From an uncultured Candidatus Saccharibacteria bacterium (lineage in GTDB: Bacteria; Patescibacteriota; Dojkabacteria; SC72): DNA of 30,173 bases. The DNA is taken from contig CAZAUH010000001.1 in the NCBI GenBank assembly GCA_964488325.1, forward strand, positions 14,339 to 44,511, written 5' to 3'. The position numbers and the translations under genes were made by a program. This document shows, one piece after another, positions 13,855 through 29,619 of this stretch. Positions within the stretch are counted from its first letter, which is position 1; each line of letters starts with the position of its first letter. The notes under the pieces are model-generated. The model had not been told where the DNA came from. It saw only the letters and a list, made by a program, of their open reading frames with translations, and made no database searches.

Positions 13855-13859
13855 TACTT

Positions 13860-13932
13860 GGTGACGTAGCCAAGCTGGTTAAGGCCGTGGTCTGCAAAAC
13901 CACTACCATGGGTTCGAGTCCCATCGTCACCT
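13860..13932 (+). tRNA. tRNA-Cys(GCA)
   Basis: Acceptor stem GGTGACG/CGTCACC, anticodon arm GTGGT-CTGCAAA-ACCAC, T-arm GGTTCGAGTCC and U discriminator as expected for Cys. No encoded CCA. Confidence 0.96.
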
Positions 13933-13959
13933 TTTACTCCTTTTATATTTTAAACAGAT

Positions 13960-14961: not shown

Positions 14962-14962
14962 T
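14954..14962 (+). promoter_or_regulatory. Extended -10 promoter (TGGTATAAT), leaderless, overlapping the upstream stop codon
   Basis: TGnTATAAT 6 nt before the ATG at 14969. The TAA stop of the upstream gene (14959-14961) lies inside the hexamer. Confidence 0.68.
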
Positions 14963-14968
14963 TAAGGT

Positions 14969-16270
14969 ATGAATAAGAAATTAATAATATTGATTGGGCT
15001 ATTCCTTTTATTAATTGCCTCTTCACTATTAATTCCAAAACTTAATAACTCTCCAAACCCTCCATTATCTAATGACAACGAGGTAAAAGGAGATACAAAA
15101 GATATATGTCTTGAAACTCAAGGCTTGGCATCTGATATATTTCAATCTTTAGCAATTGAAAGAAAATGGTATGTTAAGTCTCCATACATAGAGAATAATA
15201 ATATTAAGTTTGAATTTGACTTACCAAAAGATAATGTCTCAGTATCATACTCCTTAAATGAAGAAACCTTTCCTGCACAATATATAGAAAATAAATGGAG
15301 TATTGATATCCCTATCGAGACTTTAGATTCTAATGAATATAAGCTAATAATTAAATCTGAAATTTGTGAAGCCAAAATCTCCAAATCCTTCTCTTTTAAG
15401 GTGTCAAATCCTGTGTATGTTGTATGGAGTATAGACTGGGAAGGATTTGATGTTAAAGATAAATATCTAGATGAGATGGCTAGAATTTCAAAACAGTATT
15501 CTGCTCCAATGACACATTTTTTTAATCCATATATATACATATACCTATCTTCTTCAAGAGCAAGCGATTTAACAAATTGGGTTAAAAGTAGAGATGGAGA
15601 AAGTATTGGTTTACATATCCATATGTATAACAAGTTAGTACAGGCTAGTGGAGTTACTGTTAATAATGATCCTGCTTGGGGAAGTCCTACAGGTAATGGT
15701 CATGATACTCCAAATAGTAACTATGGATATGATGATTATAAAAGGATTATTCAATGGTCATTACAACAATATGAGAAGAATGGATTAGAACAACCTACCA
15801 TGTATAGAGCAGGGGGATGGTATATAGATGAGGAAAATATTCTTGTATTAAAAAATCTTGGGTTTTATGTTGAATCATCTGGAAGAACATTCTATAAACA
15901 TGGAAGTAACCTTTTAGAGGGACCTTGGAATCTAAAAGAGAATACTCAGCCATATCAAATGAATAGTAAAGATCAAAATATTACAGACAATCCAGATATC
16001 AATATCTGGGAATATCCTAATAACGGGGGAGATTCATGGGCATTCTCTACTGAAAAATTAATCTCTAGATTTAAAGCTAACTATAATGGAGGAATTGCAA
16101 AAAGTAATACAGTAATAACTTTCATCTCCCATCCACATTGGTTTGATAAGGAAGGACCTAATATTGAAGGTGTATTAAAATATATCTCAAACAGTACATA
16201 TTCTTCTGATAACGGTCCTGTAATATTTATTACACTTGATAAAGTACACCAATATACTGTAAAACAGTAG
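14969..16270 (+). CDS. Membrane-anchored polysaccharide deacetylase-like (CE4/NodB-fold, WalW-like) protein
   Basis: N-terminal TM, then SIDWEG, GLHIH, YRAGGW and SHPHW metal/catalytic-type motifs. Confidence 0.72.
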   Translation: MNKKLIILIGLFLLLIASSLLIPKLNNSPNPPLSNDNEVKGDTKDICLETQGLASDIFQSLAIERKWYVKSPYIENNNIKFEFDLPKDNVSVSYSLNEETFPAQYIENKWSIDIPIETLDSNEYKLIIKSEICEAKISKSFSFKVSNPVYVVWSIDWEGFDVKDKYLDEMARISKQYSAPMTHFFNPYIYIYLSSSRASDLTNWVKSRDGESIGLHIHMYNKLVQASGVTVNNDPAWGSPTGNGHDTPNSNYGYDDYKRIIQWSLQQYEKNGLEQPTMYRAGGWYIDEENILVLKNLGFYVESSGRTFYKHGSNLLEGPWNLKENTQPYQMNSKDQNITDNPDINIWEYPNNGGDSWAFSTEKLISRFKANYNGGIAKSNTVITFISHPHWFDKEGPNIEGVLKYISNSTYSSDNGPVIFITLDKVHQYTVKQ

Positions 16271-16272
16271 TA

Positions 16273-18441
16273 ATGGAATTTGAAAATTGGGTTACTCAAG
16301 TTAGTGATAAACTTCCGAATTTTACAGTAAGAATCTTCTTACTAATATCTATCATTTTGTTGATACTAATATCTATTTTGTTCCTTGAGCTCTCAAAAAG
16401 AGAATATCGTTCTCTCCTTTTAAAGAAAATAATTGGAATACGCTATCTTCTACTGAGTTCCATTTCATTAATCATGGGTTTGGGAATGTACTTTCTTTAT
16501 GATTCACGTATTAAAGAAATCTTTGGAAACAACTTAATCTATATACTCTTTCCCTTTGGTTTCTGTTCAATCTTTTCTGCATGTAAATATATATTCGGGT
16601 TATTTAATAAAAGAAAGATACAGGGAATTCTTTCAAAAATGGAACTCCTTTTACTTTCTTTAATTTTTTTATCTCTCCTTCTCATTTCCCTATTTACAGT
16701 TCCTCATGTATCAGCCACGACCCAATCTAACTCCCAAATATTGGAAAATACTGAACAAGTAACTTTAAAATTCTCATCTCCATTAAAAACATCTGCTCTA
16801 ATAGTAACTGTTTCTCCAGAGAATCAGTTTGATTTTGAATATGACTACTTTTTAGGATTAAAGTCTTTTGTTGAAAGTATTACAATCATTCCAACAGAAT
16901 CATTCTTACCCAATCAAAAAATTGTTATCTACACAACAGGAATACAAAGAATTTTTCCTTGGGGTATTAATCATGAAAACAGCCAAGAGTTTTTTACACC
17001 TAAAGATCCTGATGTCCAAGAGGTTGTACTTGGTACAGATATTTCAAATGTTAATATTGAGCAACCTATTCTGATTGAATTAGATTCTAATGATCAGAAA
17101 TCAGTAGAGTGGACTGCAATATTCAAACCCGAGGCAGAGTACAAACTACTTAGAGAATTTGATAACACATTAACAATCCAACCTACAAAATTAAAACAGG
17201 GTACTGCATACGAATTAGAAATAATTAAAAGTATTATTATTTACAATCCAAAAACTTTAGAGAAAATATCTACACAGTCTCAAGAGAGTGTAAGAAATAT
17301 CTCATTTAAAACAACACCTGCTCCCGGCATAGAAAGTTATAATAGGAGTAATGGTATATATCCTAATAGTGAACCATTAAAAGTAAATTTTCAAGTTCCT
17401 TTAGACGAAGCTTCACTTAAAGATAGAGTACTCATTTCTCCAACAGTAGATGGTGATATCTCACTTTCAACTGATAAGAAGCAGTTGCTTTTTACTCCAA
17501 AGGGAAGTTTTGCAAAGAATACTGAATATACATTCACACTATTAAGTGGAATAGAAAATCTTCTAGGAGGATATACAGAGAGTGATATATCTATTACATT
17601 TAAAACTCCTGGATACGTTGCATTACTGTATTCTACTCCTAGAAATGGCTCTACTAGCTTATCTTTATCTACGCCTTCAATTTCACTTACATTTAACCAA
17701 CCTGTTAATCACAACAGTGTTCAAGAAAGATTTAGTATATCTCCAGCTGTGAATGGCACCTTCTCATGGAGTGGAAACACTCTTACGTATAGCTTTGCTA
17801 ATTCCCTATCATATGGAACCAAATATTCGGTTAGTATTGCTAAGGGTATAGTTGCTACATATGGAATAAACTCCGCATCAACTATTACCACTTCATTCTC
17901 AACAAAGCCTGAGACTGTTCAACTTAATGTTCCCCTCTACTATCAAACAGAATCATTTACATGTAATTTAGCTGCTACAAGAATGATACTAGCATATAAA
18001 GGGATTTCAAGTTCGGAGGGAAGTATAAGAGACTCAATTGGAATAGGACAAGACCCAAATTCAAGCTGGGTAAATAAATACGGAGTACATTGGGGACCAT
18101 TATCATCGTATATCTCAAGTAGGGGTATTAGTAACTCTTTAAAAAGAGGTTGGAATCTTACCTCTGCTTTACAAGAGATAAAAAATGGTCATCCAATCCT
18201 AATATATGTTTATAATGGAAGCTCTATTCCTAAAGGACCTATGGAATTAGAAGGAGGATATATAGGTTACAAAGGTATGCACTCTGCTGTAATTATCGGA
18301 TACTCAGGTACTCCTGAATCTCCTACAGCTGTCATTGTAAATGATCCATGGAGAGGTAAAAGAAATCTTACTCCAAGTACCTTTAAATATCTCTGGTACT
18401 ATTCTAGATACTTAAACAATACAGGAATAGTAATATATTGA
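16273..18441 (+). CDS. 4-TM protein with Ig-like (Big_5-type) repeats and a C-terminal C39-like cysteine peptidase
   Basis: Four N-terminal TMs; Ig-like starts LKFSSPL, VNFQVPLD and LTFNQPVN; C39-type VPLYYQ...TCNLAA (Cys), HSAVIIGY (His) and NDPW (Asp). Confidence 0.82.
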   Translation: MEFENWVTQVSDKLPNFTVRIFLLISIILLILISILFLELSKREYRSLLLKKIIGIRYLLLSSISLIMGLGMYFLYDSRIKEIFGNNLIYILFPFGFCSIFSACKYIFGLFNKRKIQGILSKMELLLLSLIFLSLLLISLFTVPHVSATTQSNSQILENTEQVTLKFSSPLKTSALIVTVSPENQFDFEYDYFLGLKSFVESITIIPTESFLPNQKIVIYTTGIQRIFPWGINHENSQEFFTPKDPDVQEVVLGTDISNVNIEQPILIELDSNDQKSVEWTAIFKPEAEYKLLREFDNTLTIQPTKLKQGTAYELEIIKSIIIYNPKTLEKISTQSQESVRNISFKTTPAPGIESYNRSNGIYPNSEPLKVNFQVPLDEASLKDRVLISPTVDGDISLSTDKKQLLFTPKGSFAKNTEYTFTLLSGIENLLGGYTESDISITFKTPGYVALLYSTPRNGSTSLSLSTPSISLTFNQPVNHNSVQERFSISPAVNGTFSWSGNTLTYSFANSLSYGTKYSVSIAKGIVATYGINSASTITTSFSTKPETVQLNVPLYYQTESFTCNLAATRMILAYKGISSSEGSIRDSIGIGQDPNSSWVNKYGVHWGPLSSYISSRGISNSLKRGWNLTSALQEIKNGHPILIYVYNGSSIPKGPMELEGGYIGYKGMHSAVIIGYSGTPESPTAVIVNDPWRGKRNLTPSTFKYLWYYSRYLNNTGIVIY

Positions 18442-18566: not shown

Positions 18567-18812
18567 CTAATCAACATCCTCAAATAAATCAGGATTCTCA
18601 TTACCACACTTTGGACATTTTTTAATCTCTTCTACACCCTCATATACATATCCACACTTTAAACATTTCCATCTAGTCCATGTAAGATCTAAATCTTCAG
18701 GATTATCTGGGTTCTCAATATACTCTTTAGGTAAATTAGGATCTATATGTGATGTTAAACCATTAGGTGTTACACTTGTATTTTGATTATCATTCTTTAG
18801 TGTATCCTCCAT
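18567..18812 (-). CDS. Small rubredoxin-like (CxxC...CPxC) metal-binding protein
   Basis: WKCLKCGYVYEG...KCPKCG. Overlaps the 3' end of cmk by 23 nt. Confidence 0.78.
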   Translation of the reverse strand: MEDTLKNDNQNTSVTPNGLTSHIDPNLPKEYIENPDNPEDLDLTWTRWKCLKCGYVYEGVEEIKKCPKCGNENPDLFEDVD

Positions 18813-19386
18813 CTTTAATCTTTTCTAAAATTAAATTAAAAGTATCTACCTCGTTCATATTAGAGGTATCTAAAACAATATTATAATACAACTCTGGTTT
18901 ATCATACCTCACCTTATACAATCTCCAATATTTCTCTTTATCAATCTTGTATCTTTTTTTTAATCTCCTCTTAATTTCAAAATACCTTTTTAATTTCTTT
19001 AAACCTTTAATATTCTCTTTATCTAAATGTCTTTTTATCTTAACATTCTGCTTAGCATCTAACCATATTGAAACATCACATTTAAGATTTTTTACTTTGG
19101 CCAAAGCTCCATATACCTTACTATCAATTACGACATCTCCCTTTTGTGCATACTGCTCTAACATACCATCTATCTCATAATCTAAACTGTTTCCACCCTT
19201 TGATATCTGTTGAAGAAATTCCTCGAAATATTCATAATCTTTCTCTTTTGCAGCTTTTCTAAAAAGATCTCCAGCATATATATGCTTAATATTAAAATGC
19301 TTAGCTAACATCTTTGAAATAGTGGTAATACCTGAACCACCTGGTCCTCCTACAGCTATTACAATCTTTTCATTTCTTTGAGTCAT
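18790..19386 (-). CDS. cmk: Cytidylate kinase, archaeal-type (AAA-family NMP kinase)
   Basis: IAVGGPGGSGITT P-loop, HIYAGDLFR, YEID and YNIVLDTS match the archaeal-type Cmk layout rather than E. coli-type Cmk. Confidence 0.78.
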   Translation of the reverse strand: MTQRNEKIVIAVGGPGGSGITTISKMLAKHFNIKHIYAGDLFRKAAKEKDYEYFEEFLQQISKGGNSLDYEIDGMLEQYAQKGDVVIDSKVYGALAKVKNLKCDVSIWLDAKQNVKIKRHLDKENIKGLKKLKRYFEIKRRLKKRYKIDKEKYWRLYKVRYDKPELYYNIVLDTSNMNEVDTFNLILEKIKDGGYTKE

Positions 19387-19418: not shown

Positions 19419-20606
19419 ATGTCGAGCAAAAGAAAGCAAAAAAGAAAGGCATCTAGTGAACATCATTCACCCGATAAATCTATACTAATATTTATGATTG
19501 GTATGGCAATCTTTGGTGCCATTATGATATATGATGCAAGTGTATATATTGCTAATCAACAACCATTTAACAACCAATTTCATTTTCTTACATTACAGAT
19601 TGCATGGTTAATATTTGGAGGAATATTAGCATTTGTTGCATATTTAGTAGACTATAGAAAAATATTAAAATTTTCATTTCCTATTCTACTCACTGTTGTT
19701 TTACTACTAATATTAGTTCTTGTACTTGGTCAAGAGGTAAATGGCTCAAAAAGATGGTTTCAAATAGGTGCACTTCCACCCATACAGCCTGCTGAATTTG
19801 CTAAACTTGCAGTAATTATGTATTTCTCAAGTTGGTTTTCAAATAAAGAGTATTCCTTTACTAAGTTTGAAGATTCATTTAAAAAGGGATTCTTAAAAAA
19901 TCTAATCCCCTTTCTAGCAATACTTGGAATAGTTGCATTACTTGTTCTCTTTGAACCTGATTTGGGAACTGCAATGATAATATGTGTAACCGCCTTTATT
20001 ATGTTTTTTGTCTCTGGAAAAGATAAGGCACATAGAATTGGTTCTTTTGCTATGATTCCTCTTGTTGCTCTTTTAGGAGTAATAGCTATCATATTAGAAC
20101 CTTACAGAATATCAAGAATTCAAACATACCTAAATCTAATATTTAAAGGAGAGGTAGCAGATGCACAGGGAAGTGGGTATCAGATGCAACAGATACTTAT
20201 TGGAATTGGGAGTGGAGGATTCTGGGGAAAGGGATTTGGGCAATCAAGACAGAGGTTTGGATACTTAGTTGAAAATACCGCATTTACTGATTCAACATTT
20301 GCAGTACTTTTAGAAGAGTTGGGATTATGGGGTGGGGGATTAATAGTTCTTTCTTGGATATTTTTTCTTTGGAGAGGATTTAAAATTGCACTTAACGCTA
20401 TAGATCAACAGGGACAGTATCTTGCAACAGGAATTACCGTATGGCTTTCATGTCAAGCATTCTTTAATATGGCAGCAAATGTTGGATTAATTCCACTAAC
20501 AGGAATTCCTCTACCCTTTCTAACATACGGGGGGTCTAGTACAATAGTAACAATGATAGCTTTTGGATTACTCTTAAATGTAAGTAAATATACAAAAAAT
20601 GCTTAA
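19419..20606 (+). CDS. ftsW: SEDS-family glycan polymerase FtsW
   Basis: GSKRWF, QPAEFAK, EPDLGT, GYQ, GSGG-GKG, TD (catalytic Asp) and PLTGIPLPFLTYGGSS. Directly upstream of murG. Confidence 0.93.
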   Translation: MSSKRKQKRKASSEHHSPDKSILIFMIGMAIFGAIMIYDASVYIANQQPFNNQFHFLTLQIAWLIFGGILAFVAYLVDYRKILKFSFPILLTVVLLLILVLVLGQEVNGSKRWFQIGALPPIQPAEFAKLAVIMYFSSWFSNKEYSFTKFEDSFKKGFLKNLIPFLAILGIVALLVLFEPDLGTAMIICVTAFIMFFVSGKDKAHRIGSFAMIPLVALLGVIAIILEPYRISRIQTYLNLIFKGEVADAQGSGYQMQQILIGIGSGGFWGKGFGQSRQRFGYLVENTAFTDSTFAVLLEELGLWGGGLIVLSWIFFLWRGFKIALNAIDQQGQYLATGITVWLSCQAFFNMAANVGLIPLTGIPLPFLTYGGSSTIVTMIAFGLLLNVSKYTKNA

Positions 20607-21777
20607 ATCAGAAATAAAGATAATGATAACAGGAGGAGGTAGTGGAGGACATATCTCTGTCGTAAAAAGTATAATTCATTCTTTAGTTGAAGATTACAAT
20701 ATACCAATTGAAAACTTAATATATGTTGGAGGGGATCTTGGTATGGAGGGAGAGCAGATTGGTAACTCTCTTGAACAAAGACAGTTTAAAGATAGTAAGT
20801 TTAAAAAATACTTTATTAGAGCAGGCAAACTACAAAGGAAAATATCTTTAAAAACAGTTTATTTACTCTTTAGATCTTTACTTGGGTTTTTTGACTCAAT
20901 GTCAATTGTTAAGAAAAGTAATCCAACATTGATTTTCTCCTCTGGTGGATTTGTATCAGTACCTGTATGTATAGCAGGATGGATGTTTCATAAACCTGTA
21001 TATTTACATGAACAGACAGCCTCTGTTGGTCTTTCAAATAGAATAGTTGGTAAGTTTGCAAAAAAGATATTTGTTACTTTTAATGATTCCCTTAAATATT
21101 TCCCGAAAGCAAAAACTGTTCATGTTGGTAATATTGTAAGAAAAGAGGTGTTTGAGAAAGAGATAACACAGCAAACAGATAAAGAGATAGTATCTCTAAT
21201 GGTAACAAACAAAAAACTTCCATTTGTATATATATCTGGTGGTAGTTTAGGTTCACACAATATTAATATAAAGGTTTTTGATTCCCTAAACTCTCTTTTA
21301 AGAAAATACAGGGTACTTCTTCAAACAGGGGATAATGAGATATACAAAGATTATGAAAAAGGAATTGATATAAAGAATAAATTAACAGGAGAGTATCAAG
21401 AAAGATTCGTTGTTAAGAAATATATTGATAGCAGTAGTATTGGATATGTCTTAAATAACATGGACCTCTTTTTAGGAAGAGCTGGTGCAAACACAGTATA
21501 TGAAATAGGGGTTTTAAAAAAGTTTGCCCTTTTAATACCAATACCCTGGGTTACACATAACGAACAGTATTTAAATGCTAAGGTTTTATCTGATATTGGT
21601 ACAGCAAATATTTTAGAAGAGAAATATTTAAATAATTGTGATCTTGATAATGAGATTGTTAGATTACAAAAACAGTTAGAGATAAGAGATATTAATTATG
21701 AAAAATTAGAGAAACTCTTTCCAACTAACGCTACTTTCAAGATATTAGATGACATGTTAGGGACATATCTAAAGTAG
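20599..21777 (+). CDS. murG: Lipid I GlcNAc transferase MurG
   Basis: GGGSGGH, GGFVS, HEQ, GGSLG, RAGA...E and EQYLNA motifs. Confidence 0.93.
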   Translation: MLKSEIKIMITGGGSGGHISVVKSIIHSLVEDYNIPIENLIYVGGDLGMEGEQIGNSLEQRQFKDSKFKKYFIRAGKLQRKISLKTVYLLFRSLLGFFDSMSIVKKSNPTLIFSSGGFVSVPVCIAGWMFHKPVYLHEQTASVGLSNRIVGKFAKKIFVTFNDSLKYFPKAKTVHVGNIVRKEVFEKEITQQTDKEIVSLMVTNKKLPFVYISGGSLGSHNINIKVFDSLNSLLRKYRVLLQTGDNEIYKDYEKGIDIKNKLTGEYQERFVVKKYIDSSSIGYVLNNMDLFLGRAGANTVYEIGVLKKFALLIPIPWVTHNEQYLNAKVLSDIGTANILEEKYLNNCDLDNEIVRLQKQLEIRDINYEKLEKLFPTNATFKILDDMLGTYLK

Positions 21778-21819
21778 CTCTACTACTGTTTATTTCCCAT
21801 CTGTTATATACTCTACCTA

Positions 21820-22842
21820 ATGAAAGTAGAAAAAAATGTATCACTTAAGAAATTAAATACTTTTAGAGTAGATGTATATACTGATATTTTACTTGCCATT
21901 GATAGTGATAATGATTTTTCAAATATAGAGGTAACGGGATATTTAAAAAATGACAACCTATTAATCTTGGGTGGAGGTTCTAATATACTCTTTACAAAAG
22001 ATTTTAAAGGTTGTGTTACCTTAATACGAAATATGGGGAAGGCCATATTAGAAGAGAGTGACCAATCTCTTACCGTACAGGTTAGTGCGGGTGAAAATTG
22101 GGATGATTTTGTAAAATGGAGTGTAAAAAAGAATTTAATTGGTCTACACAATCTTGCTTTAATACCAGGAACTGTTGGTGCTACCCCAATACAAAATGTA
22201 GGAGCATATGGAGTTGAAATCAAAGATTTTCTTACTGAGGTTGAGATTATTGATATTCAAAAAGGCAGAACTGAGATAATCAAAAACAGTGAGTGTAAAT
22301 TTGGATATAGAGATAGTATATTTAAAAATGAATTAAAAGATAAAGTCATTATTAAAAGTGTTACATTTAAACTACCTAAATATGCAGGAAAATTTGATGA
22401 TAAATATACCCAATATGCAGGTATTAAAGATGAACTAAAAGAAAAAGAACCCACTCCCAAAAACATATATGACTCTGTTGTAAGACTTCGAGAAAGCAAA
22501 TTACCTAAAATAGAAGAGTTCGGTTCCTGTGGAAGTACCTTTAAAAATCCAGAGATATCAATATCAGAGTACGACAGACTTTTAAAAACATTCCCGGAGT
22601 TACCTAAGTATGATACTGATAAAAAAGGAATTGTTAAAATACCAGCAGCATATATTTTGGAAAAGTTGGGATGGAAAAATAAAAGAAAGGGAGATGTTGG
22701 AACATGGATATATCATCCTTTAATTGTTACAAACTATGGAAATGCTACTGGTCAAGAGATCCTTTCCTTTATTAATGAAATCAAATCTGATTTTAAATCT
22801 AATACTAATTTAGATTTAGAGTGTGAAATTAATATTATTTAA
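21820..22842 (+). CDS. murB: UDP-N-acetylenolpyruvoylglucosamine reductase MurB
   Basis: GGGSN, IPGTVGA, QNVGAYG, GYRDS, GSTFKNP and C-terminal LECE. Confidence 0.96.
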   Translation: MKVEKNVSLKKLNTFRVDVYTDILLAIDSDNDFSNIEVTGYLKNDNLLILGGGSNILFTKDFKGCVTLIRNMGKAILEESDQSLTVQVSAGENWDDFVKWSVKKNLIGLHNLALIPGTVGATPIQNVGAYGVEIKDFLTEVEIIDIQKGRTEIIKNSECKFGYRDSIFKNELKDKVIIKSVTFKLPKYAGKFDDKYTQYAGIKDELKEKEPTPKNIYDSVVRLRESKLPKIEEFGSCGSTFKNPEISISEYDRLLKTFPELPKYDTDKKGIVKIPAAYILEKLGWKNKRKGDVGTWIYHPLIVTNYGNATGQEILSFINEIKSDFKSNTNLDLECEINII

Positions 22843-22851
22843 TACAATCAT

Positions 22852-24144
22852 ATGTCAAACCTAATCGTTAAAGGTGGGAATAAACTAAATGGAGAGATAA
22901 CTCCTGCGGGAAATAAAAACTCCGCTCTCCCAATACTGTGTGCATCTCTTCTTACAGATGAACCTGTATTAATTAAGAATTTCCCTGAATTAACTGATGT
23001 TGGTAAATTAATTGAATTAATGCAAGAGTTAGGTTCCAAGATAGAGTGGAACAAAGAAAAACAGGAAATAAAAATAGATAACTCTCATTTTTGTAAATCT
23101 TTTGGAGATAGTGGATTTCCACTAGGAATGAGAGGTGCTGTTTTACTACTTGCACCCTTACTTCATAGACACAAGGTATTAGAAGTTAAACAGGAGATTG
23201 GAGGATGTTCATTAGGAATAAGGGAGTTAGATCCTCATTTAGAGGTACTAACAGGATTAGGGGCAAACGTTAAATCAAATGATAAAATCACTATAGAGGC
23301 AAAAGATGGTCTAACTGGTAACACCCTATGGCAAGACTATATGTCTGTTACAACTACCGAAAACTTTGCTATGGCTGCTTCTTTAGCCAAGGGAACATCA
23401 ACCATGGTAAACGCTGCATCTGAACCCCATGTGCAAGACCTATGTAACTTTCTCATTCAAATGGGTGCAAAGATAGAGGGTATTGGTTCATCAACATTGA
23501 TTGTTCATGGCGTTGAGAAACTGCATGGTACACAATTTACAATCTCTTCTGATCATCATGAAATTACTACTTTACTTGCCCTTGGGGCAATGACTGGAGG
23601 TCAGGTTAGAGTTACCAACGCTATCCCTCAACATTTTCAATTGATAAATAAGACTTTTGCAAAATTTGGGGTAGAAATTAAATATGATGGTGATACTGCA
23701 TACTCTGTAAACAACGGAGTATTAAAAGTGGTTGAACCATTTACAAAAAATCTTTTACAAAAAGTAGAAGCAGCTCCATGGCCATACTTTCCCACAGATC
23801 TTTTACCATTAATAATGGCTTTAGCTGTAAAAGCAGATGGAAATACTATGTTTTGGAATAAACTGTATGAAGGAGGACTATTCTGGATACCTGAAATGAT
23901 TAAGTTCGGGGCACATATTGTAATGTGTGATCCTCATAGAGTAATTGTGTTTGGAGGAAAAGAGTTAAGTCCAGCGACTGTTGATGCTCCCAATATTATT
24001 AGAGCAACTGTCGCCCTATTAATGGTTGCGTTAACAATAGAGGGAGAGAGTGTAATTAATAACGCAGATACTATTAAAAGAGCACATCCTAATTTTGTAG
24101 AGAACTTACAAAAACTTGGTGCAGATATTAAATGGGTTGATTAG
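22852..24144 (+). CDS. murA: UDP-GlcNAc 1-carboxyvinyltransferase MurA
   Basis: GNKNSALP, GGCSLGIR (catalytic Cys retained), TEN and FPTD. Confidence 0.95.
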   Translation: MSNLIVKGGNKLNGEITPAGNKNSALPILCASLLTDEPVLIKNFPELTDVGKLIELMQELGSKIEWNKEKQEIKIDNSHFCKSFGDSGFPLGMRGAVLLLAPLLHRHKVLEVKQEIGGCSLGIRELDPHLEVLTGLGANVKSNDKITIEAKDGLTGNTLWQDYMSVTTTENFAMAASLAKGTSTMVNAASEPHVQDLCNFLIQMGAKIEGIGSSTLIVHGVEKLHGTQFTISSDHHEITTLLALGAMTGGQVRVTNAIPQHFQLINKTFAKFGVEIKYDGDTAYSVNNGVLKVVEPFTKNLLQKVEAAPWPYFPTDLLPLIMALAVKADGNTMFWNKLYEGGLFWIPEMIKFGAHIVMCDPHRVIVFGGKELSPATVDAPNIIRATVALLMVALTIEGESVINNADTIKRAHPNFVENLQKLGADIKWVD

Positions 24145-24334
24145 TTAGGTATAACAAAGAAAAATAAATATTCCTTTCTATTAAAGCATTACTTAAAAGC
24201 AGTTCATTCTTCCTATTAGGTATATATCAATATATCTTTAATCTTCCAATTTCCCTTTCTTAAAGGTAAATATATTCATAATAGATGACTTGTAGTAATA
24301 CACTCTTGACCATCATATTAATTTGGTATACATT

Positions 24335-24375
24335 AATGGCAAGAAGTGGTAAAAAGTGGTGAAAGATGATATATT
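24335..24375 (+). promoter_or_regulatory. MraZ operator direct repeats (10-bp period) abutting an extended -10 promoter
   Basis: AAGTGGT at 24344 and 24354, with degenerate copies on each side (TGG/TGG/TGG/TGA at 24337, 24347, 24357, 24367). TGATATATT at 24367-24375 is 6 nt before the mraZ ATG. Confidence 0.82.
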
Positions 24376-24381
24376 CTTTTT

Positions 24382-24819
24382 ATGATAATTGGAGAATATA
24401 GAAGTAAAGTAGGGGATAAAAAAAGAGTATCACTTCCTAAGAAATTTAGAGATGAATTAGGTGAAGAGATAATATTAACAAGGGGTTACGAAGACGCACT
24501 AATACTTGTTAATAAGGGAATGTGGGAAAAGATTGCGAAAGATGTTATAGGTGGCTCTTTTATAAATAAAAATGTTCGTGATACTAGCAGATTCCTAATA
24601 GGTAGTGCTATAGAGATATCAATAGATAAGCAGGGAAGATTTTTAATTCCAGATTCTCTTTTTGATCATGCAGGATTAAACAAAGATGTTGTATTTTTAG
24701 GTTTAATCAATTGGATAGAGGTATGGGATAGAGAGAAATGGGATAAGAGAGTCGAATATCTAAAAGCAAATGGAGATGAAATAGCAAATGAGATTAATAA
24801 GATGAAGGAGGAGAAATAG
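24382..24819 (+). CDS. mraZ: Transcriptional regulator MraZ
   Basis: GEYRSKVGDKKRVSLP, DKQGRFLIP and IEVWD motifs; heads the rsmH-ftsL-ftsI run. Confidence 0.95.
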   Translation: MIIGEYRSKVGDKKRVSLPKKFRDELGEEIILTRGYEDALILVNKGMWEKIAKDVIGGSFINKNVRDTSRFLIGSAIEISIDKQGRFLIPDSLFDHAGLNKDVVFLGLINWIEVWDREKWDKRVEYLKANGDEIANEINKMKEEK

Positions 24820-25707
24820 ATGGAAAAGATACACATACCTGTACTTTTAGATGAAGTCATTAGTTTCCTTGAAATTAAGCCTAATGGTTTTTACATTGAT
24901 TGCACACTAGGAGATGGGGGACACAGTTTTGAGATATATAAAAGATTGAGTAGCGATGGACTACTTCTTAGTATAGATCAAGATCAATATGCTATCGATT
25001 TTGTTCAAGAGTATTACAAAGATGTGATAAAGAAAAATTGGGTTATAAAAAAATCTAATTTTTCAAAGATTGCCTCTATTACATCCCAATACGAAAGACA
25101 ACCCGATGGGATATTAATGGATTTAGGTCTCTCATCTAGACAGTTAGAGGATTCACATAACAGAGGTTTTAGCTACTTAGAAGAGAGTGAACCATTAGAT
25201 ATGAGAATGGATGAGGAGTTAGGAGTAAAAGCTAAAGATATCCTAGTAGTCCTTTCAGAGAAAGATTTATCTACACTCTTTCTAAAATATGGAGAGGAAA
25301 AATATGCTAGAAAAATTGCTAAAGCTATTAAAGATGATATTACGAATATTATTACGGTTGGAGATCTTACAAGACTTGTCTATAGAGTTGTGCCGACAGC
25401 TCATCAAAATTCAAAGAACCCTTCACGCAGGGTCTTTCAGGCCCTGCGTATTGTGGTAAATGATGAACTAAACTCTTTGAAAGAGGGCTTAGACAAATCT
25501 TTTAAGCTCTTAAATCAAAAAGGAAGGATATGCGTAATATCTTTCCATTCGCTCGAAGATAGAATAGTTAAAGATTACTTTAACAGTTTAGTTGATAGCG
25601 GAGAGGGATTACTTCTTACCAAACAATTAAGTGCCCCAACCGACCAAGAGGTAAGAGACAATCCCAGATCCGCTTCAGCTAAATTAAGAGTATTAGAGAA
25701 AATATAA
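24820..25707 (+). CDS. rsmH: 16S rRNA m4C1402 methyltransferase RsmH
   Basis: HIPVL, DCTLGDGGHS, DLGLSS, PLDMRM, ISFHSLEDR and NPRSASAKLR. Confidence 0.97.
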   Translation: MEKIHIPVLLDEVISFLEIKPNGFYIDCTLGDGGHSFEIYKRLSSDGLLLSIDQDQYAIDFVQEYYKDVIKKNWVIKKSNFSKIASITSQYERQPDGILMDLGLSSRQLEDSHNRGFSYLEESEPLDMRMDEELGVKAKDILVVLSEKDLSTLFLKYGEEKYARKIAKAIKDDITNIITVGDLTRLVYRVVPTAHQNSKNPSRRVFQALRIVVNDELNSLKEGLDKSFKLLNQKGRICVISFHSLEDRIVKDYFNSLVDSGEGLLLTKQLSAPTDQEVRDNPRSASAKLRVLEKI

Positions 25708-25724
25708 CAGTAGTTTACTGCCCA

Positions 25725-26030
25725 ATGAAAACAACTGAAAAAATAAAAGGGTCCATATTTCCAAAGATATTAATCTTTTCATTTGTTCTCTTTACAGTAT
25801 CCCAATTAGTAGTTAATTCTGTTTTAACACCACTTGGTACTAGACTAGAATCTTTAAATACAGAAAAAGAACATCTTTTAGAGGAAAACAGGGTAGTATC
25901 CGAAGAGATAGCAAAAAACAGCTCTCTTAAAGTAATCGAAAGCCTTTCTGGAAAGAAGTTAAATCTTTCACAAACTAAAGTGCAAACATTTGTATATATT
26001 GAGGATTCTACATTAGTAGCTAATAACTAA
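25725..26030 (+). CDS. ftsL: Cell division protein FtsL-like
   Basis: Small bitopic protein with one TM and a coiled coil (LESLNTEKEHLLEEN), located between rsmH and ftsI. Its stop overlaps the ftsI start (TAATG). Confidence 0.7.
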   Translation: MKTTEKIKGSIFPKILIFSFVLFTVSQLVVNSVLTPLGTRLESLNTEKEHLLEENRVVSEEIAKNSSLKVIESLSGKKLNLSQTKVQTFVYIEDSTLVANN

Positions 26031-27874
26031 TGAGTAGGCTAAATCATCTACATTCTTCAAAACATAAGGGGAAAAAATCTTCTATTGGTGCTAAAATTCA
26101 AAAAAATAACTATAACTTTGTAATAGCCTTTTTGACAATATTAGGCCTTGTAGTTCTAATTCAAGCATTCCGTTGGCAAGTTTTAGAATCAGATAAATTT
26201 ATTGCTATTGCAAAACAACAGTATACCGATAAAGGGAAACAGACTGCTGAAAGGGGAATGATATACGCAAACGATGGAACAATTCTTGCAGTAGACCAAC
26301 CCATATGGAATGTATTTGCCTCTTTAAGTACAGATGAGAAAGAAAGAGAGCTCTTCTTTAGTAAAAAAGATCTTTTCATCTCAACAATATCCTCTATTCT
26401 TGCTGTAGAAAATGAGAGTATTGAAAGTAAAATAACTGACGACTTTCAATACGTTAACCTAGCGAAAGGTGTCGATACTGAAACAAAAATAGCAATTGAA
26501 AGTGCGAATATCTTTGGAAATGAAGATACCAATAGAGCTGGATTTGGTCTCTATTTTGAAAGAGCGTTAAAAAGGGTATATCCCAATGGAGAGCTTGCAT
26601 CTCATGTTTTGGGTTTCATTGGAAAAGATAGTGAAGGAAGCGATTTAGGACAGTATGGTATAGAAGGTTTTTACTTCGGAGATATTACCGGTAAGGAAGG
26701 ATACACATACGAAGAAAAGGATTCTTTAGGTAACACTATCTTAACAGCAGAATATGAACCTGTACTTCCTAGATCTGGTAAAGATTTTACACTTACTATT
26801 AAACCATCACTTCAAAACAAAGTAGAAAGGATATTAAAAGAGAATGTTGAAAAGACTAGTTCAAAAAGTGGAAGTGTGATAATAATGAATCCAAAAACAG
26901 GAGAGATTTTGTCTATTGCAAACTATCCCTCTTACAATCCTAATGAGTATTGGAGAATATCCGATCCATGGGTATTTAAGAATCTAGTAGTTGCTGATGT
27001 CTACGAATACGGTTCTGTTCAGAAACCAATTACCGTTTCAATTGCTCTTGAATCTGGTGATGTCCCTAAAGACTTCACATGCAATGACAAAACAGGATAC
27101 TTGGATCTATATGAAGCAACAGGATATGCAGATTTAAAGGGAAGAAAAATATATCAATGGGATAAAAGACCTGATGGTCTTCAAACATTAGCAGATATGT
27201 TAAAAAATTCTAATAACCCCTGTATAGCTAGAACTGCACTAGAGGTAGACTTTAAATACTTCTATAACAAGCTTAAAGAGTTTGGGATAGGTAGCTTTAT
27301 TGGAATAGGATTACAAGAGGAAAGTAATAGCTACTTAAAATCAGATGCACAGTGGACCAAGCTTGATACAATTACTGCATCCTATGGACAGGGTATATCT
27401 GCTACTCAACTTCAGGTAATCTCTGCTATTAGTACAATAGCAAACCATGGTAAAAGAATGAGACCATATATTATCTCCTCAATATCAGATGAAAAAGAAA
27501 AAATAAATTTTCAACCTCAGGTTCTTTCAGAACCAATTTCTTCTGAGACCGCAGATGCTGTAGCAGAGATGATGACACACGTTATTGAGGATGGAGGAAT
27601 TAATATTAAATACATTAAACAGTTAGAGGACTATTACATTGCAGGTAAAACAGGAACTTCCCAGGTTGCGAAAAAAGATGGTGTGGGATATGAAGAGGAT
27701 AAAACAATTACTACCTTTGTTGGTTTTGCTCCAGCTGATGATGCAAAGATGATAATGCTTGTAAGATTAGAAGAGCCAAAAAACAACCAGTATGCAGCAA
27801 ACACTGTAGTACCTATGTGGACTGAAATATTTCTAAATATTGTTAATGACCTAGAAATCTCAAAGAGAAATTGA
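26030..27874 (+). CDS. ftsI: Class B penicillin-binding protein (FtsI/PBP2-type transpeptidase)
   Basis: N-terminal TM, RGMIY and RVYP dimerisation-domain motifs, SxxK (SVQK), SxN (SNN) and KTG. Confidence 0.92.
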   Translation: MSRLNHLHSSKHKGKKSSIGAKIQKNNYNFVIAFLTILGLVVLIQAFRWQVLESDKFIAIAKQQYTDKGKQTAERGMIYANDGTILAVDQPIWNVFASLSTDEKERELFFSKKDLFISTISSILAVENESIESKITDDFQYVNLAKGVDTETKIAIESANIFGNEDTNRAGFGLYFERALKRVYPNGELASHVLGFIGKDSEGSDLGQYGIEGFYFGDITGKEGYTYEEKDSLGNTILTAEYEPVLPRSGKDFTLTIKPSLQNKVERILKENVEKTSSKSGSVIIMNPKTGEILSIANYPSYNPNEYWRISDPWVFKNLVVADVYEYGSVQKPITVSIALESGDVPKDFTCNDKTGYLDLYEATGYADLKGRKIYQWDKRPDGLQTLADMLKNSNNPCIARTALEVDFKYFYNKLKEFGIGSFIGIGLQEESNSYLKSDAQWTKLDTITASYGQGISATQLQVISAISTIANHGKRMRPYIISSISDEKEKINFQPQVLSEPISSETADAVAEMMTHVIEDGGINIKYIKQLEDYYIAGKTGTSQVAKKDGVGYEEDKTITTFVGFAPADDAKMIMLVRLEEPKNNQYAANTVVPMWTEIFLNIVNDLEISKRN

Positions 27875-27908
27875 GATAATTAGAGATAATAAATTCGTTA
27901 ATACTAAT

Positions 27909-28937
27909 ATGATTGAAATTCTAAAAGAGAGTCTCCAATATCTATTCATTTCTACACTAGCATCTGTACTTCTTGCACCAATCATGATTAGTATACTCTA
28001 CAAACTGAATCAGGTAAGTGGACTTAAGAAAACAGAACTTGGATCAAGAGAGGGAACCAATTCCATATTCATGAGAATTATGAAATCAACTCAAACAAAT
28101 GGTACACCAAATATGGGTGGCGTACTAATTTGGATTGTTGTTCCTTTAATAGCATATATATTTACCCCTATGTTTCCACAGTTAAGAGCTCTTCTAATTG
28201 GCTTTATGCTTTTTGGGTTTTGGGGCTTTGTAGATGTTGCAATATTTACAAATGGGTTTAAGAATAATCCTAAGATAAAGGCAATGCAAGAAACTTTTGA
28301 ATGGAGATTAGGTAAGCTCCTATTCACTATTCTTCTTAATATTATAATAATGTATCTTCTATATAGTACCGGTACTTTTACAACACTATCACTTACAAAT
28401 ACAATTGTACTTTCAATAACACCAGCAATACTTCTACTTATCGCAATAGTTAGTCAATTTGCAATCTATTCTGGAGAGCTAACTGATGGATTAGATGGTC
28501 TAATGGTAGGTATATTTATCATTATTATTTGTGCTATGTCTATGCTATTAATAGTACAACAGCAGTACGCCTTCTTACCATTTCTTGCAATTACATTAGG
28601 GGTATTAGTAGTTGATCTTTACTTTAATATTCCTCCAGCAAGATTTTGGAATGGGGGACCAGGTGCTATGCCTTTGGCCTTCTCTATCTTTTTTATTGGC
28701 TTAGTAACAAACAATATTCTTCCATATTTCCTAATGACCTCTGTTACATGGTTAATAATGGGATCAAGTGCAATACAGATATTAAGTATGAAATTCTTTA
28801 AGAAGAGGGTATTTAAGATAGCTCCAATACATCATCACTTCCAAGCAGTAGGATGGCCTCAGTACAAAATTACAATGAGGTTTTGGCTATTTACACTCTT
28901 TGCATGTATCTTAGGACTATTTGTAGGATTACTCTAA
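27909..28937 (+). CDS. mraY: MraY-family polyprenyl-phosphate sugar-phosphotransferase with atypical active site
   Basis: About 10 TMs, TPxMGG, TDGLDGL and APIHHHF, in the dcw position. The DD and MGD catalytic motifs are altered (see findings). Confidence 0.85.
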   Translation: MIEILKESLQYLFISTLASVLLAPIMISILYKLNQVSGLKKTELGSREGTNSIFMRIMKSTQTNGTPNMGGVLIWIVVPLIAYIFTPMFPQLRALLIGFMLFGFWGFVDVAIFTNGFKNNPKIKAMQETFEWRLGKLLFTILLNIIIMYLLYSTGTFTTLSLTNTIVLSITPAILLLIAIVSQFAIYSGELTDGLDGLMVGIFIIIICAMSMLLIVQQQYAFLPFLAITLGVLVVDLYFNIPPARFWNGGPGAMPLAFSIFFIGLVTNNILPYFLMTSVTWLIMGSSAIQILSMKFFKKRVFKIAPIHHHFQAVGWPQYKITMRFWLFTLFACILGLFVGLL

Positions 28938-28941
28938 CAGG

Positions 28942-29619
28942 TTACTCCTTCACACAACTACTTTCTCCATTCTTACATTGACATAGTAAGTTACCATCTT
29001 TTGAGTTATATACATCTCCATCATTTCGAATATATCCCTCATATATACAGTTATTAGATAGATAAATAGAATCATATTCATCTTGATACTGTACTCTAAA
29101 TGTATCATCTACATTCATGTTAAAGTTATTAATAAGAAATGTGTTTTCAGAAACACATGGCATATTAAATGACTCATTTGTTAAATTACTTACTACTGTA
29201 AGTATTAATTTCTCTTCATTTAATTTATAGAAACCTATTTGTGGAGCAACTATACTATCCTCATTACACATACTTTCGATTTCAAGTGTAATCTTCAAAT
29301 TGTTATTAAAATTTGAAATATCAACAAACTTAGCTTTTTGATTAATTGGGTTATTAATATCTATAAGATTAAGAAAATCAAATGAATATACTAAATCTAC
29401 GGATGTAAACTCACTTGAACCAACTGTAATTGTAATATCTTCATCACAAACCTTTTCTCCCTCACTATTACATATACAGTTTGTTCCTAAATCATCTCCA
29501 AATGCACACTGTTTAATTCCTATCGTATCTTTTAAAGATATAACGAAAATTCCCAGTGAGGAAAAAAATAGGAACAACGTAATTATTACCAACCAATTGG
29601 CATACAACCGACCTTTCAT
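28942..29619 (-). CDS. Single-TM exported protein with two small Cys-rich modules
   Basis: N-terminal TM; CAFGDDLGTNCICNSEGEKVC and CIYEG...DGNLLCQCKNGESSC; TGATACAAT lies 9 nt upstream of the ATG. Confidence 0.75.
   Translation of the reverse strand: MKGRLYANWLVIITLFLFFSSLGIFVISLKDTIGIKQCAFGDDLGTNCICNSEGEKVCDEDITITVGSSEFTSVDLVYSFDFLNLIDINNPINQKAKFVDISNFNNNLKITLEIESMCNEDSIVAPQIGFYKLNEEKLILTVVSNLTNESFNMPCVSENTFLINNFNMNVDDTFRVQYQDEYDSIYLSNNCIYEGYIRNDGDVYNSKDGNLLCQCKNGESSCVKE

Follow-up and report, generated by a model that had tools for sequence, protein, structure and literature searches.

Can a bacterium build a cross-linked wall when its wall cluster encodes the glycan steps of peptidoglycan synthesis and none of the ligases for the stem peptide? 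The question is raised by a 30,173-nt stretch of DNA, here called the window, from a Dojkabacteria (CPR, WS6) assembly labelled G000 (646 kb, 74.6% complete, 90 contigs). The canonical dcw cluster runs mraZ-rsmH-ftsL-ftsI-murE-murF-mraY-murD-ftsW-murG-murC-ddl and, to our knowledge, MurC-F are regarded as universal in wall-bearing bacteria.

Organization of the cluster

The window carries ftsW-murG-murB-murA, a 237-bp spacer and mraZ-rsmH-ftsL-ftsI-mraY, flanked by cmk and a convergent gene (Table 1). Gene calls and profile matches agree with the order and boundaries claimed in an earlier note on this DNA. That note had also presented the order as permuted, but this is no peculiarity of the window: the order is typical of a 100-genome Dojkabacteria family, recurs at about 79 Dojkabacteria loci, and the cluster is found in 94 of the 100 family genomes. 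The window holds the standard two-operon wall and division cluster of one Dojkabacteria (WS6) family. It shares with the canonical dcw cluster the mraZ, rsmH, ftsL, ftsI, mraY, ftsW and murG families and an mraZ-led operon preceded by a conserved predicted promoter and 10-bp-spaced repeats. It differs in being split into two units, with ftsW-murG-murB-murA first and mraY last, in having murA and murB inside, and in having no murC, murD, murE, murF or ddl.

Table 1. Features of the cluster and its boundaries (window coordinates).
Feature	Position	Strand	Evidence and remarks
cmk (cytidylate kinase)	18790-19386	-	Pfam Cytidylate_kin/AAA_17; divergent left boundary; same position in most family loci
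ftsW (SEDS glycan polymerase)	19419-20606	+	PF01098 (FTSW_RODA_SPOVE) 295 bits; TIGR02614 311 bits, slightly short of its cut-off of 337.5
murG (GT28 GlcNAc transferase)	20599-21777	+	N- and C-terminal GT28 domains (PF03033, PF04101) above cut-off; TIGR01133 179 bits, short of its cut-off of 250
murB (UDP-N-acetylenolpyruvoylglucosamine reductase)	21820-22842	+	NF000755 352.9 bits (cut-off 277); PF01565 FAD-binding and PF02873 MurB_C
murA (UDP-GlcNAc enolpyruvyl transferase)	22852-24144	+	NF006873 392.6 bits (cut-off 297)
spacer, 237 bp	24145-24381	.	murF site of relatives; predicted mraZ promoter and repeats
mraZ	24382-24819	+	TIGR00242 109.5 bits (cut-off 98.35)
rsmH (mraW)	24820-25707	+	TIGR00006 296.8 bits (cut-off 154.3)
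ftsL-like small bitopic protein, 101 aa	25725-26030	+	ftsL position; one N-terminal TM helix; conserved in 49 loci
ftsI (class B PBP, transpeptidase)	26030-27874	+	PF00905 218.6 bits and PF03717 (dimerisation/pedestal domain)
mraY, type-B paralogue	27909-28937	+	PF00953 34.2 bits (cut-off 27); TIGR00445 109.9 bits, far short of its cut-off of 192
x225, Cys-rich, N-terminally anchored, convergent	28942-29619	-	right boundary; one TM helix; adjoins mraY in 67 loci

MurA, MurB, MraZ and RsmH score above their NCBIfam cut-offs, while FtsW, MurG, FtsI and MraY are recognisable but fall below the equivalog cut-offs. The position of murG next to ftsW is syntenic at every family locus compared, and the catalytic Cys loop of MurA (GGC-S-LGIR) is conserved family-wide. 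As in dcw clusters, mraZ-rsmH-ftsL-ftsI heads an operon (24382-27874), in an order conserved in about 60 loci. Searches of Pfam and NCBIfam gave no match for either the ftsL-like protein or x225.

Loss of the Mur ligases

The dcw-type interleaving of murE, murF, murD and murC with ftsI, mraY, ftsW and murG is absent from both the window and the genome. None of the remaining window ORFs encodes a Mur ligase or Ddl; the ligase-sized ORFs at 12430-18441 are a pyruvate kinase, an Acyl_transf_3-like protein, one ORF without assignment and a Big_5/C39-like protein. Searches of the whole G000 assembly for Mur_ligase_M (PF08245) and Mur_ligase_C (PF02875), the central and C-terminal domains of the Mur ligase family (MurC/D/E/F, Mpl, MurT, FolC, CapB), gave 0 matches, and neither lineage-matched tblastn nor a family MurF profile run over all six frames found a ligase. 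A MurD tblastn match on contig C84 (E 0.007) corresponds to a 418-aa ORF without a Pfam family, on which PF08245 is silent, and is attributed to chance.

Synteny shows the sites of the loss. In relatives murD-murC-murE forms a separate block and murF, in antisense orientation, separates murA from mraZ. At the murE site of relatives only 52 bp separate a PPDK-like gene from mutS in G000 (contig C5), while the murE-murC-murD-pyrG block has been deleted at its syntenic site on contig C20; neither junction holds a ligase remnant. The third site is the 237-bp spacer, whose position is occupied by murF, on the minus strand, in about 35 related loci. Lineage-matched tblastn and the family MurF profile detected no murF remnant in this spacer; one is seen in a relative (G055). 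The spacer contains a promoter-like TTGACC-17-TACATT (24306-24334) upstream of mraZ and 10-bp-spaced (A/T)GTGG repeats; 50 of 58 loci conserve these repeats. The gap is best read as the scar of a murF deletion combined with a conserved, predicted mraZ promoter/operator. As all three syntenic ligase sites (murF, murE and murE-murC-murD) have collapsed in G000, the loss is genuine and independent of assembly completeness: G000 has lost all four Mur ligases. The earlier note had considered that the ligases might be missing genome-wide, which proves right for murC/D/E/F and Ddl alike, and named intact murC/D/E/F elsewhere in the genome as the finding that would overturn this. We searched for such genes and found none; domain, tblastn and profile searches are blank and the syntenic sites are empty.

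This state is common in the family. About 30 of the 100 genomes have no Mur ligase at all, the others carrying 4-5, two (E and F) or one (F), and at least six independent changes in ligase content map on the tree. The losses extend to MurA, missing from 13/100 family genomes, and MurB, missing from 26/100; G020, G024 and G145 are among these, and G145 bears the scar of one deletion spanning both murB and murA. Relatives that lose murA/murB retain mraY-murG-ftsW-ftsI. The result is a natural genotype series in Mur genes (A-F; A,B,E,F; A,B,F; A,B; none), whose grades could be used to deduce which intermediates are exchanged.

Selection on the retained wall machinery

For eight ligase-free genome pairs (dS up to 1-2), dN/dS was 0.04-0.08 for ftsW, 0.09-0.14 for murG, 0.09-0.16 for murB, 0.05-0.07 for murA, 0.03-0.07 for ftsI and 0.04-0.07 for mraY. 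In lineages without ligases, purifying selection on the measured cluster genes is strong (0.03-0.16 overall). The transpeptidase motifs of FtsI (S329-V-Q-K, S394-N-N and K540-T-G in G000) follow the SxxK/SxN/KTG pattern, which is kept in 22/22 ligase-free genomes and invariant in 63 family sequences, and the transpeptidase domain is conserved as much as the pedestal domain. MurJ, a second class-B PBP and a class-A PBP besides FtsI, and a YkuD L,D-transpeptidase occur in every ligase-free genome tested. At least 16 ligase-free genomes carry an intact FemX-like (FemAB-family) gene; most ligase-free genomes, though not all, have one. Retention of the FtsI motifs, the PBPs, the L,D-transpeptidase and the FemX-like gene makes a peptide-free wall unlikely.

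An altered MraY paralogue

The order has two MraY paralogues, a canonical type A and a type B, of which the family has only type B. MraY-B resembles the solved MraY structures (4j72, 5jnq, 8g01) in length and aligns over the whole fold, but differs from them in that the second Asp of the DD motif is Val and the Mg-binding Asp of GDxGS is Gly. In the alignment with 5jnq/8g01 the motifs read D-V and GGPGA, with HHH kept. Two of the three catalytic aspartates are missing, D109 and D193/D196 (TDGLDGL) are retained, and E190, N248 and Q127/E128 are invariant residues specific to type B. The essentiality of the aspartates is known from the MraY of A. aeolicus and B. subtilis, and MraY-B offers enzymologists a natural variant lacking two of three residues regarded as essential. 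No MraY of the whole order reaches the TIGR00445 cut-off (192 bits).

The earlier note had suggested that the altered MraY fits the absence of ligases. The co-occurrence check speaks against this: the altered motifs are invariant in 74/74 family MraY sequences, also where the genome has four or more ligases, and are common to sister families. An order-wide paralogue that is invariant within the family was rejected as a correlate of ligase loss. As the family lost type-A MraY before the ligases, the alteration is not specific to that loss. The sole ligase-free genome outside the family (G037) also has only type-B MraY. MraY-B is the sole MraY homologue in family genomes with at least four intact ligases and has a low dN/dS, which suggests that it is active and may transfer phospho-MurNAc-pentapeptide to undecaprenyl phosphate.

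Source of the stem peptide

The family repeatedly discards ligases, and in places MurA/MurB, yet its membrane-bound and extracytoplasmic enzymes, with the peptide-dependent transpeptidases among them, stay under strong selection. The reading we prefer, to which we assign a probability of about 0.5, is that ligase loss is genuine, that the membrane half of the pathway is retained, and that a cross-linked wall is fed by the peptide-bearing MurNAc precursor of a putative host. The family first lost type-A MraY, and decay of the ligases came after; in G000 it took the form of deletions of murF from the murA-mraZ spacer and of murE and murE-murC-murD-pyrG at two other sites. The membrane and extracytoplasmic half (MraY-B, MurG, MurJ, FtsW, FtsI, second bPBP, aPBP, YkuD LDT and often a FemX-like protein) has been kept. 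On this reading the cell would still assemble lipid-linked MurNAc-GlcNAc and, at least at the septum, a wall with peptide cross-links. The cytoplasmic steps disappear in no set order whereas the membrane steps persist, and for this reason the putative host is the most probable source of the MurNAc-peptide nucleotide or of one of its intermediates. Such an external supply would make every soluble step individually dispensable, and in G000 MurA and MurB may still feed the cell's own UDP-MurNAc into the imported pool.

Several observations count against host supply. With import of the finished precursor, murA and murB should serve no purpose, but in G000 and in most ligase-free relatives both genes are intact and under constraint (dN/dS 0.05-0.16). 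MurI, Alr and Ddl persist in some ligase-free genomes (G001, with 0 ligase-domain matches, has all three), a sign that the cell itself uses D-amino acids. Neither a transporter nor a salvage enzyme for a MurNAc-peptide nucleotide was found, and this too weighs against import. We know of no described transporter for uptake of peptide-loaded MurNAc precursors from hosts, and of no supplying partner or route for Dojkabacteria. Two other groups of enzymes proved uninformative. Across the family Alr and MurI occur patchily, as does Ddl among the relatives sampled; racemases are patchy even in four-ligase genomes and do not discriminate as markers of peptide synthesis. GlmU was undetected in 5/5 genomes and GlmS is patchy, so that neither serves as a test of nucleotide-sugar import.

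An unlikely, though serious, alternative is that non-Mur carboxylate-amine ligases place amino acids or a scavenged peptide on UDP-MurNAc or lipid-linked MurNAc, making MurC-F redundant. This would account for murA/murB staying under selection without ligases, and for the enzyme complement of G001. ATP-grasp enzymes and Mur ligases share acyl-phosphate chemistry, and a conserved candidate operon on G000 contig C12 encodes four ATP-grasp ligases behind a 7TM_transglut membrane protein. In favour of this reading the operon is present in 97/100 family genomes, but it is so whatever their ligase count; it does not track the loss, and we rejected it as a specific ligase replacement. It is also order-wide: sister families with full ligase sets have it, as do four-ligase members of the family, and its best match is the G domain of cyanophycin synthetase, suggesting a poly-amino-acid product. 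G020, G024 and G145 are without MurA/MurB too and would have no substrate for ligation. The FemX-like gene is not universal in ligase-free genomes, and FemX-like enzymes are unable to acylate a carboxylate. In a related version, which we consider doubtful, MraY-B would load MurNAc with no or an incomplete stem peptide and non-Mur enzymes (the 7TM/four-ATP-grasp operon, FemX-like proteins) would then install the peptide. If true, this would be a second, Mur-ligase-independent path to a cross-linked MurNAc-GlcNAc wall, and its existence would have let the classical ligases decay repeatedly.

The earlier note had offered either a peptide-free polymer or scavenging; scavenging is the better fit. 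For a peptide-free or otherwise decorated glycan, MraY-B would load bare phospho-MurNAc, FtsW and the PBP glycosyltransferases would polymerise it, and FtsI would act only as an activator of FtsW. SEDS polymerases do require bPBPs for activation, and such a glycan would agree with intact MurA, MurB, MraY-B and MurG in cells without any ligase and with the remodelled active site of MraY-B. It is difficult to reconcile with the FtsI motifs kept in every ligase-free genome, a transpeptidase domain conserved like the pedestal under an ftsI dN/dS of 0.03-0.07, two further transpeptidase-domain PBPs and an LDT in all genomes tested, a FemAB-family gene in most, and the losses of murA/murB. Family members with a full ligase set, moreover, use the same MraY-B, and we hold this reading to be improbable.

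It is very improbable that the ligases were missed through an incomplete MAG, divergence or an unbinned element. G000 is incomplete as well as fragmented, and MAG binning does add noise to ligase counts, as near-identical G163 and G197 give 1 and 5 ligases. Against this, the three syntenic sites in G000 are intact and empty. Two of the ligase-free family genomes are single-contig (G015 and G097, 98-99% complete) and have 0 ligases by two independent domain models, while the same domain searches find four in the closed control genome G108. Ligases present in the family are well conserved and readily detected, and lineage-matched searches were blank. Finally, that the remaining cluster is non-functional debris undergoing loss is hardly credible: relatives do lose cytoplasmic genes piecemeal, but nine of nine genes are intact ORFs with catalytic motifs kept, the ligase-free pairs show strong constraint, and the cluster persists in nearly all family genomes.

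Relation to known systems

If true, either acquisition of peptide-loaded MurNAc from a host or attachment of peptide by novel chemistry would be new biology, and either outcome would change how calls of an 'incomplete peptidoglycan pathway' in CPR genomes are read. Such a pathway in WS6, mentioned in the earlier note, has indeed been published, but at pathway level only; the finding reportedly goes back to Castelle et al. 2018.

Chlamydia, Wolbachia and Orientia, small-genome obligate intracellular bacteria, have a reduced 'intermediate' peptidoglycan (Otten et al. 2018, PMC5814848). That survey found MurA-G and MraY without exception wherever peptidoglycan was complete or intermediate, the losses being of class-A PBPs and similar proteins. 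The Dojkabacteria family shares with these bacteria a small genome, host dependence, lipid II synthesis, SEDS/bPBP pairs and patchy racemases, but shows the opposite pattern of loss, discarding MurC-F and keeping a class-A PBP, two bPBPs, an LDT and MurJ.

Insect hosts and their symbionts (the mealybug symbiont Moranella, and Buchnera in aphids) have mosaic peptidoglycan pathways, in which transferred genes reside in the host nucleus. As in the family, single soluble precursor steps are lost and presumably supplied from outside; these symbionts, however, are endosymbionts of eukaryotes, whereas Dojkabacteria are CPR bacteria and presumed episymbionts of prokaryotes.

Tannerella forsythia, without MurA/MurB, is a MurNAc auxotroph, and Pseudomonas salvages MurNAc through AmgK-MurU; MurC-F are kept in these organisms. 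G020, G024 and G145 likewise lack MurA/MurB, but unlike Pseudomonas the Dojkabacteria genomes searched gave no AmgK- or MurU-specific match. There was no MurU match in G000, G015, G020 or G024, and the G145 matches, which fall far short of the cut-off, are of RmlA type or generic. AmgK/MurU salvage was rejected on these grounds, the APH-family kinases lacking the AmgK signature and the nucleotidyltransferases being RmlA-type or generic. APH kinases were nevertheless present in 3/3 of the MurA/B-less genomes tested and in 0/2 of the MurA/B-positive ones.

Gene order of the cluster

ORF calling with Pfam and NCBIfam scans reproduced the layout that had been read from the sequence alone: cmk on the minus strand, ftsW, murG, murB, murA, a 237-bp spacer, mraZ, rsmH, an ftsL-like gene (101 aa, bitopic), ftsI, mraY and a convergent gene, x225. 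MurA, MurB, MraZ and RsmH passed the curated NCBIfam cutoffs while FtsW, MurG, FtsI and MraY gave clear domain matches with scores below the equivalog cutoffs; no Mur ligase or Ddl was found among the remaining ORFs of the window. The earlier note had called the cluster permuted, but a scan with the MraY protein yielded 79 Dojkabacteria loci, essentially all of which share the order cmk< ftsW> murG> [murB>] murA> [murF<] mraZ> rsmH> ftsL> ftsI> mraY> x225<.

About 35 loci have a genuine murF in antisense orientation precisely in the murA-mraZ interval (above the TIGR01143 cutoff in both examples tested). In the window, as in its closest relatives, this slot is empty, and no murF remnant was found in the spacer. 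The spacer carries a family-conserved TTGACC-17-TACATT followed by two to three (A/T)GTGG repeats at 10-bp spacing, an arrangement present in 50 of 58 loci that looks like an mraZ promoter with MraZ boxes and resembles an MraZ operator; the repeats are presumably the counterparts of the E. coli MraZ sites.

Loss of the Mur ligases

The assembly that contains the window (G000) comprises 646 kb in 90 contigs and is 74.6% complete. There were no matches to Mur_ligase_M or Mur_ligase_C in G000, and nothing better than chance was found with same-family and same-genus MurC, MurD, MurE, MurF and Ddl queries or with a profile of 30 family MurF sequences run against every six-frame segment. As G000 is incomplete, evidence was sought from synteny. 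In two genomes of the same genus (G009 and G006), murE separates a PPDK-like gene from mutS; on contig C5 of G000 these two genes are 52 bp apart with no murE. In G017 and G023, the block murE-murC-murD(-galU)-pyrG has an ADP-forming acetyl-CoA-synthetase-like gene on one side and an Fe-hydrogenase-like gene on the other; on contig C20 of G000 these flanks enclose only an ORF of the dCMP/cytidine-deaminase family, and neither pyrG (CTP synthase) nor the galU-like gene was found anywhere in G000. All three known ligase sites (the murF slot, C5 and C20) are intact and empty; hence, incompleteness cannot explain the absence of the Mur ligases, which are truly lost from G000. The genome-wide absence envisaged in the earlier note is therefore upheld by blank domain, query and profile searches and by three empty sites, and the intact murC, murD, murE and murF that it named as contrary evidence were searched for across G000 and not found.

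About 30 of the 100 species genomes in this GTDB family have no Mur ligase domain. They include the single-contig genomes G015 (JBMNHC01; 99% complete) and G097 (HGW-Dojkabacteria-1, PHAO01; 98%), as well as G001 (97%, about 20 contigs), G004 (98%, about 20), G123 (98%, about 40) and G191 (99%, about 80). A single domain, in the loci examined, belongs to the syntenic murF; genomes with two have MurE and MurF (typed in G009), and further genomes have four or five, the four of G017 being MurC, MurD, MurE and MurF and the closed genome G108 also having four. Among 201 genomes sampled across the class, 29 are ligase-free (G000 counted), 28 of them within the family and one, G037 (87% complete), outside it. 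A tree of RsmH, FtsI and MraY (58 rows) requires at least six changes between zero and nonzero ligase states, forced by well-supported branches, and places the window in a clade of 22 genomes, 19 of them ligase-free, that is sister to the four-ligase G017. The nearest relative of G000, G005 (97% MraY identity), is likewise ligase-free. Ligase loss is a repeated process across the family, and the initial observation of a ligase-free cluster is confirmed and strengthened.

Two genomes, G163 (L050) and G197 (L048), have almost identical rsmH-ftsI-mraY genes (branch lengths of ~0.01) and one and five Mur ligase domains, respectively. The ligase block may be difficult to bin, or else G197 (5% contamination) may contain foreign contigs. 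Binning can thus distort the ligase count of a single MAG; the evidence from closed genomes and synteny is independent of this noise.

Decay of the cytoplasmic arm

Of the 100 family genomes, 20 have a detectable MurI and 26 a detectable Alr, irrespective of ligase count, and Ddl is just as patchy (24 genomes sampled). Ligase-free G001 encodes MurI as well as an adjacent pair of Alr and Ddl, the Ddl match being strong; a ddl of the same type occurs in G005. Thirteen of the 100 genomes lack MurA and 26 lack MurB_C. Those without both proteins include three ligase-free genomes, G020 (94%, three contigs), G024 (95%) and G145 (97%), the two-ligase G055 (99%), and three of the four g34 genomes, whose one remaining ligase is the syntenic murF in the two loci that span the site. 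In G145, murB residues 1 to 170 directly abut murA residues 399 to 430, so a single deletion spanned both genes; the remnant of a degraded murF persists in G055, and in G020 and G195 murG lies directly against mraZ. All of these keep ftsW, murG, ftsI and the mraY of the window's type. The retained MurA to MurF sets are A,B,E,F; A,B,F; A,B; F only; E,F without A,B; and none. There is thus no fixed order of loss, and the whole cytoplasmic arm is decaying in the family.

No MurNAc salvage enzymes of the AmgK/MurU type were identified in G000, G015, G020, G024 or G145. APH-family kinases were present in all three MurA/MurB-less genomes tested and in neither of the MurA/MurB-positive G000 and G015, a very small sample; these kinases had no AmgK-specific signature.

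Retained membrane and wall machinery

For eight genome pairs, both members ligase-free, dN/dS was 0.03 to 0.07 for ftsI, 0.04 to 0.07 for mraY, 0.05 to 0.07 for murA, 0.09 to 0.16 for murB, 0.09 to 0.14 for murG and 0.04 to 0.08 for ftsW. All of 22 FtsI sequences from ligase-free genomes retain SxxK, SxN and KTG, the transpeptidase domain of FtsI being conserved to the same degree as the pedestal domain, and the MurA Cys loop is conserved. MurJ, a second class-B PBP of ~675 aa, a class-A PBP with a glycosyltransferase domain and one YkuD L,D-transpeptidase are each present in ligase-free G000, G001, G015 and G097, the same set as in the closed four-ligase G108. MreB is present in G000. A FemAB-family gene is full length in G000; at least 16 genomes without ligases carry it intact (63 to 96% identity), and it is absent from G001, G003, G004 and G010 and broken in G007.

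MraY paralogues

Aligned to solved MraY structures, the MraY of the window has D-V in place of the DD pair and a Gly at the Asp of the Mg-binding GDxGS motif (WNGGPGAM); it keeps TDGLDGL and HHH. The earlier note had asked whether these alterations accompany ligase loss; they do not track it: the D-V and GGPGA states are invariant in 74 of 74 family sequences, including those from genomes with four or more ligases, whose MraY proteins have the same TIGR00445 score (104 to 107 bits). Sister families have two paralogues, type A (363 to 386 aa, DD and MGDxGS) beside the ligases and type B (339 to 348 aa, DV or DE and no third Asp) beside mraZ-rsmH-ftsL-ftsI, both within one region in G035 and G031; the family has type B only. 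Type B has invariant polar residues missing in type A (E190, N248, Q127/E128 and N68; 84 sequences). Given these residues and its dN/dS of 0.04 to 0.07, we regard type B as probably an active enzyme with remodeled coordination and not a decaying gene. G037, ligase-free and outside the family, shows only type B. We infer that the canonical MraY was lost first and that the ligases eroded afterwards.

Three genomes that otherwise carry only type B (G018, G008 and G014) have type-A-like genes, located in G018 and G008 beside a Mur ligase on contigs of at most ~6 kb. These genes may be contamination or last remnants of the canonical pathway.

Source of the stem peptide

From its sequence conservation, the membrane and extracytoplasmic machinery appears to go on working once the ligases are gone, and any one of the soluble steps can be dispensed with in the family. 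Without a peptide-cross-linked wall, nothing would hold back the decay of the transpeptidases, of the L,D-transpeptidase or of the FemX-like gene; such a wall is therefore probably still made. The MurNAc nucleotide with its peptide, or intermediates of it, would most likely come from a host (probability of about 0.5), as only this reading also covers relatives without any of MurA to MurF; it would also account for the repeated losses in no set order. The main difficulty for host supply is that murA and murB are constrained in G000 and most ligase-free relatives, some of which keep Ddl, Alr and MurI. This leaves room for an unrecognized ligase that attaches the stem peptide, which we consider unlikely: the visible candidate, an operon on contig C12 of G000 that encodes a 7TM_transglut protein together with four ATP-grasp ligases, occurs throughout the order, also alongside complete sets of Mur ligases. 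A peptide-free glycan, which the earlier note had set beside host scavenging, is more doubtful still, as the peptide-handling enzymes are conserved; of that note's interpretation, the genome-wide absence of ligases stands, whereas the altered MraY is not specific to the loss and host supply is favored over the peptide-free polymer. An artefact, with ligases merely missed, and a relic, with the remaining cluster as debris, are both effectively excluded.

Reduced peptidoglycan pathways in host-dependent bacteria are the known kind, with MurNAc auxotrophy and insect-symbiont mosaics as partial analogues. Compared with the usual reduction, the pattern in this family is reversed. Reviews that cite Castelle et al. 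(2018) go no further than calling peptidoglycan synthesis in WS6/Dojkabacteria incomplete or missing. The literature searched yielded no account of the particular steps that are absent, of the graded series or of the MraY paralogue.

Locations of the features discussed
Feature	Location	Strand	Details
Window	G000:C1:14339-44511
Subtilase	window 6221-7981	+
OppA/MppA-family solute-binding protein	window 9849-11627	-	SBP_bac_5
Membrane protein and 433-aa protein	window 13960-16270	+	upstream of cluster; weak Acyl_transf_3 (OatA-like), E 4.6e-4; 433-aa protein secreted/anchored, without family
Large protein	window 16273-18441	+	Big_5 + Peptidase_C39_2
murA-mraZ spacer	window 24145-24381
Strongly conserved stretch upstream of mraZ	window 24270-24381		same region in loci L008-L082
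x225	window 28942-29619	-	225 aa, Cys-rich, one N-terminal TM helix, no family match
Deaminase-family ORF	G000 C20:10123-10563 (L144:3124-3564)		146 aa; at murE-murC-murD-pyrG site of relatives
FemAB-family gene	G000 C27:3911-4981		106.7 bits
ATP-grasp operon	G000 C12:7955-13745 (L106)	-
alr-ddl	G001:C12 (L101:1864-6168)		ddl 499 bits to NF002525; then Big_5 and M14 carboxypeptidase
APH-family kinases	G020:C2:228514-229077; G024:C29:3675-4316; G145:C2:117161-117862 (L146-L148)		277-318 aa
Type-A-like MraY genes	G018:C76 (L002/L120); G008:C41 (L100/L112); G014:C4 (L129)

Other genes

The ATP-grasp operon is tight and encodes the 7TM_transglut membrane protein, then ligases of 491 aa (ATPgrasp_ST), 326 aa, 565 aa and 317 aa (RimK-like). 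It is convergent with a MATCAP-family peptidase gene and adjoins mreB. The 565-aa ligase matches the cyanophycin-synthetase G domain without a Mur-like M domain; as a marker of the operon, it occurs in 97 of 100 family genomes and order-wide, with hardly any occurrences in the rest of the class.

The Acyl_transf_3-like and 433-aa genes upstream of the cluster do not keep their synteny with it in relatives. The solute-binding protein, the subtilase and the Big_5 + Peptidase_C39_2 protein could have a role in peptide harvesting. The x225 gene is convergent to mraY in 67 family loci, with a dN/dS of 0.06 to 0.17, and may be a candidate partner of the wall machinery.
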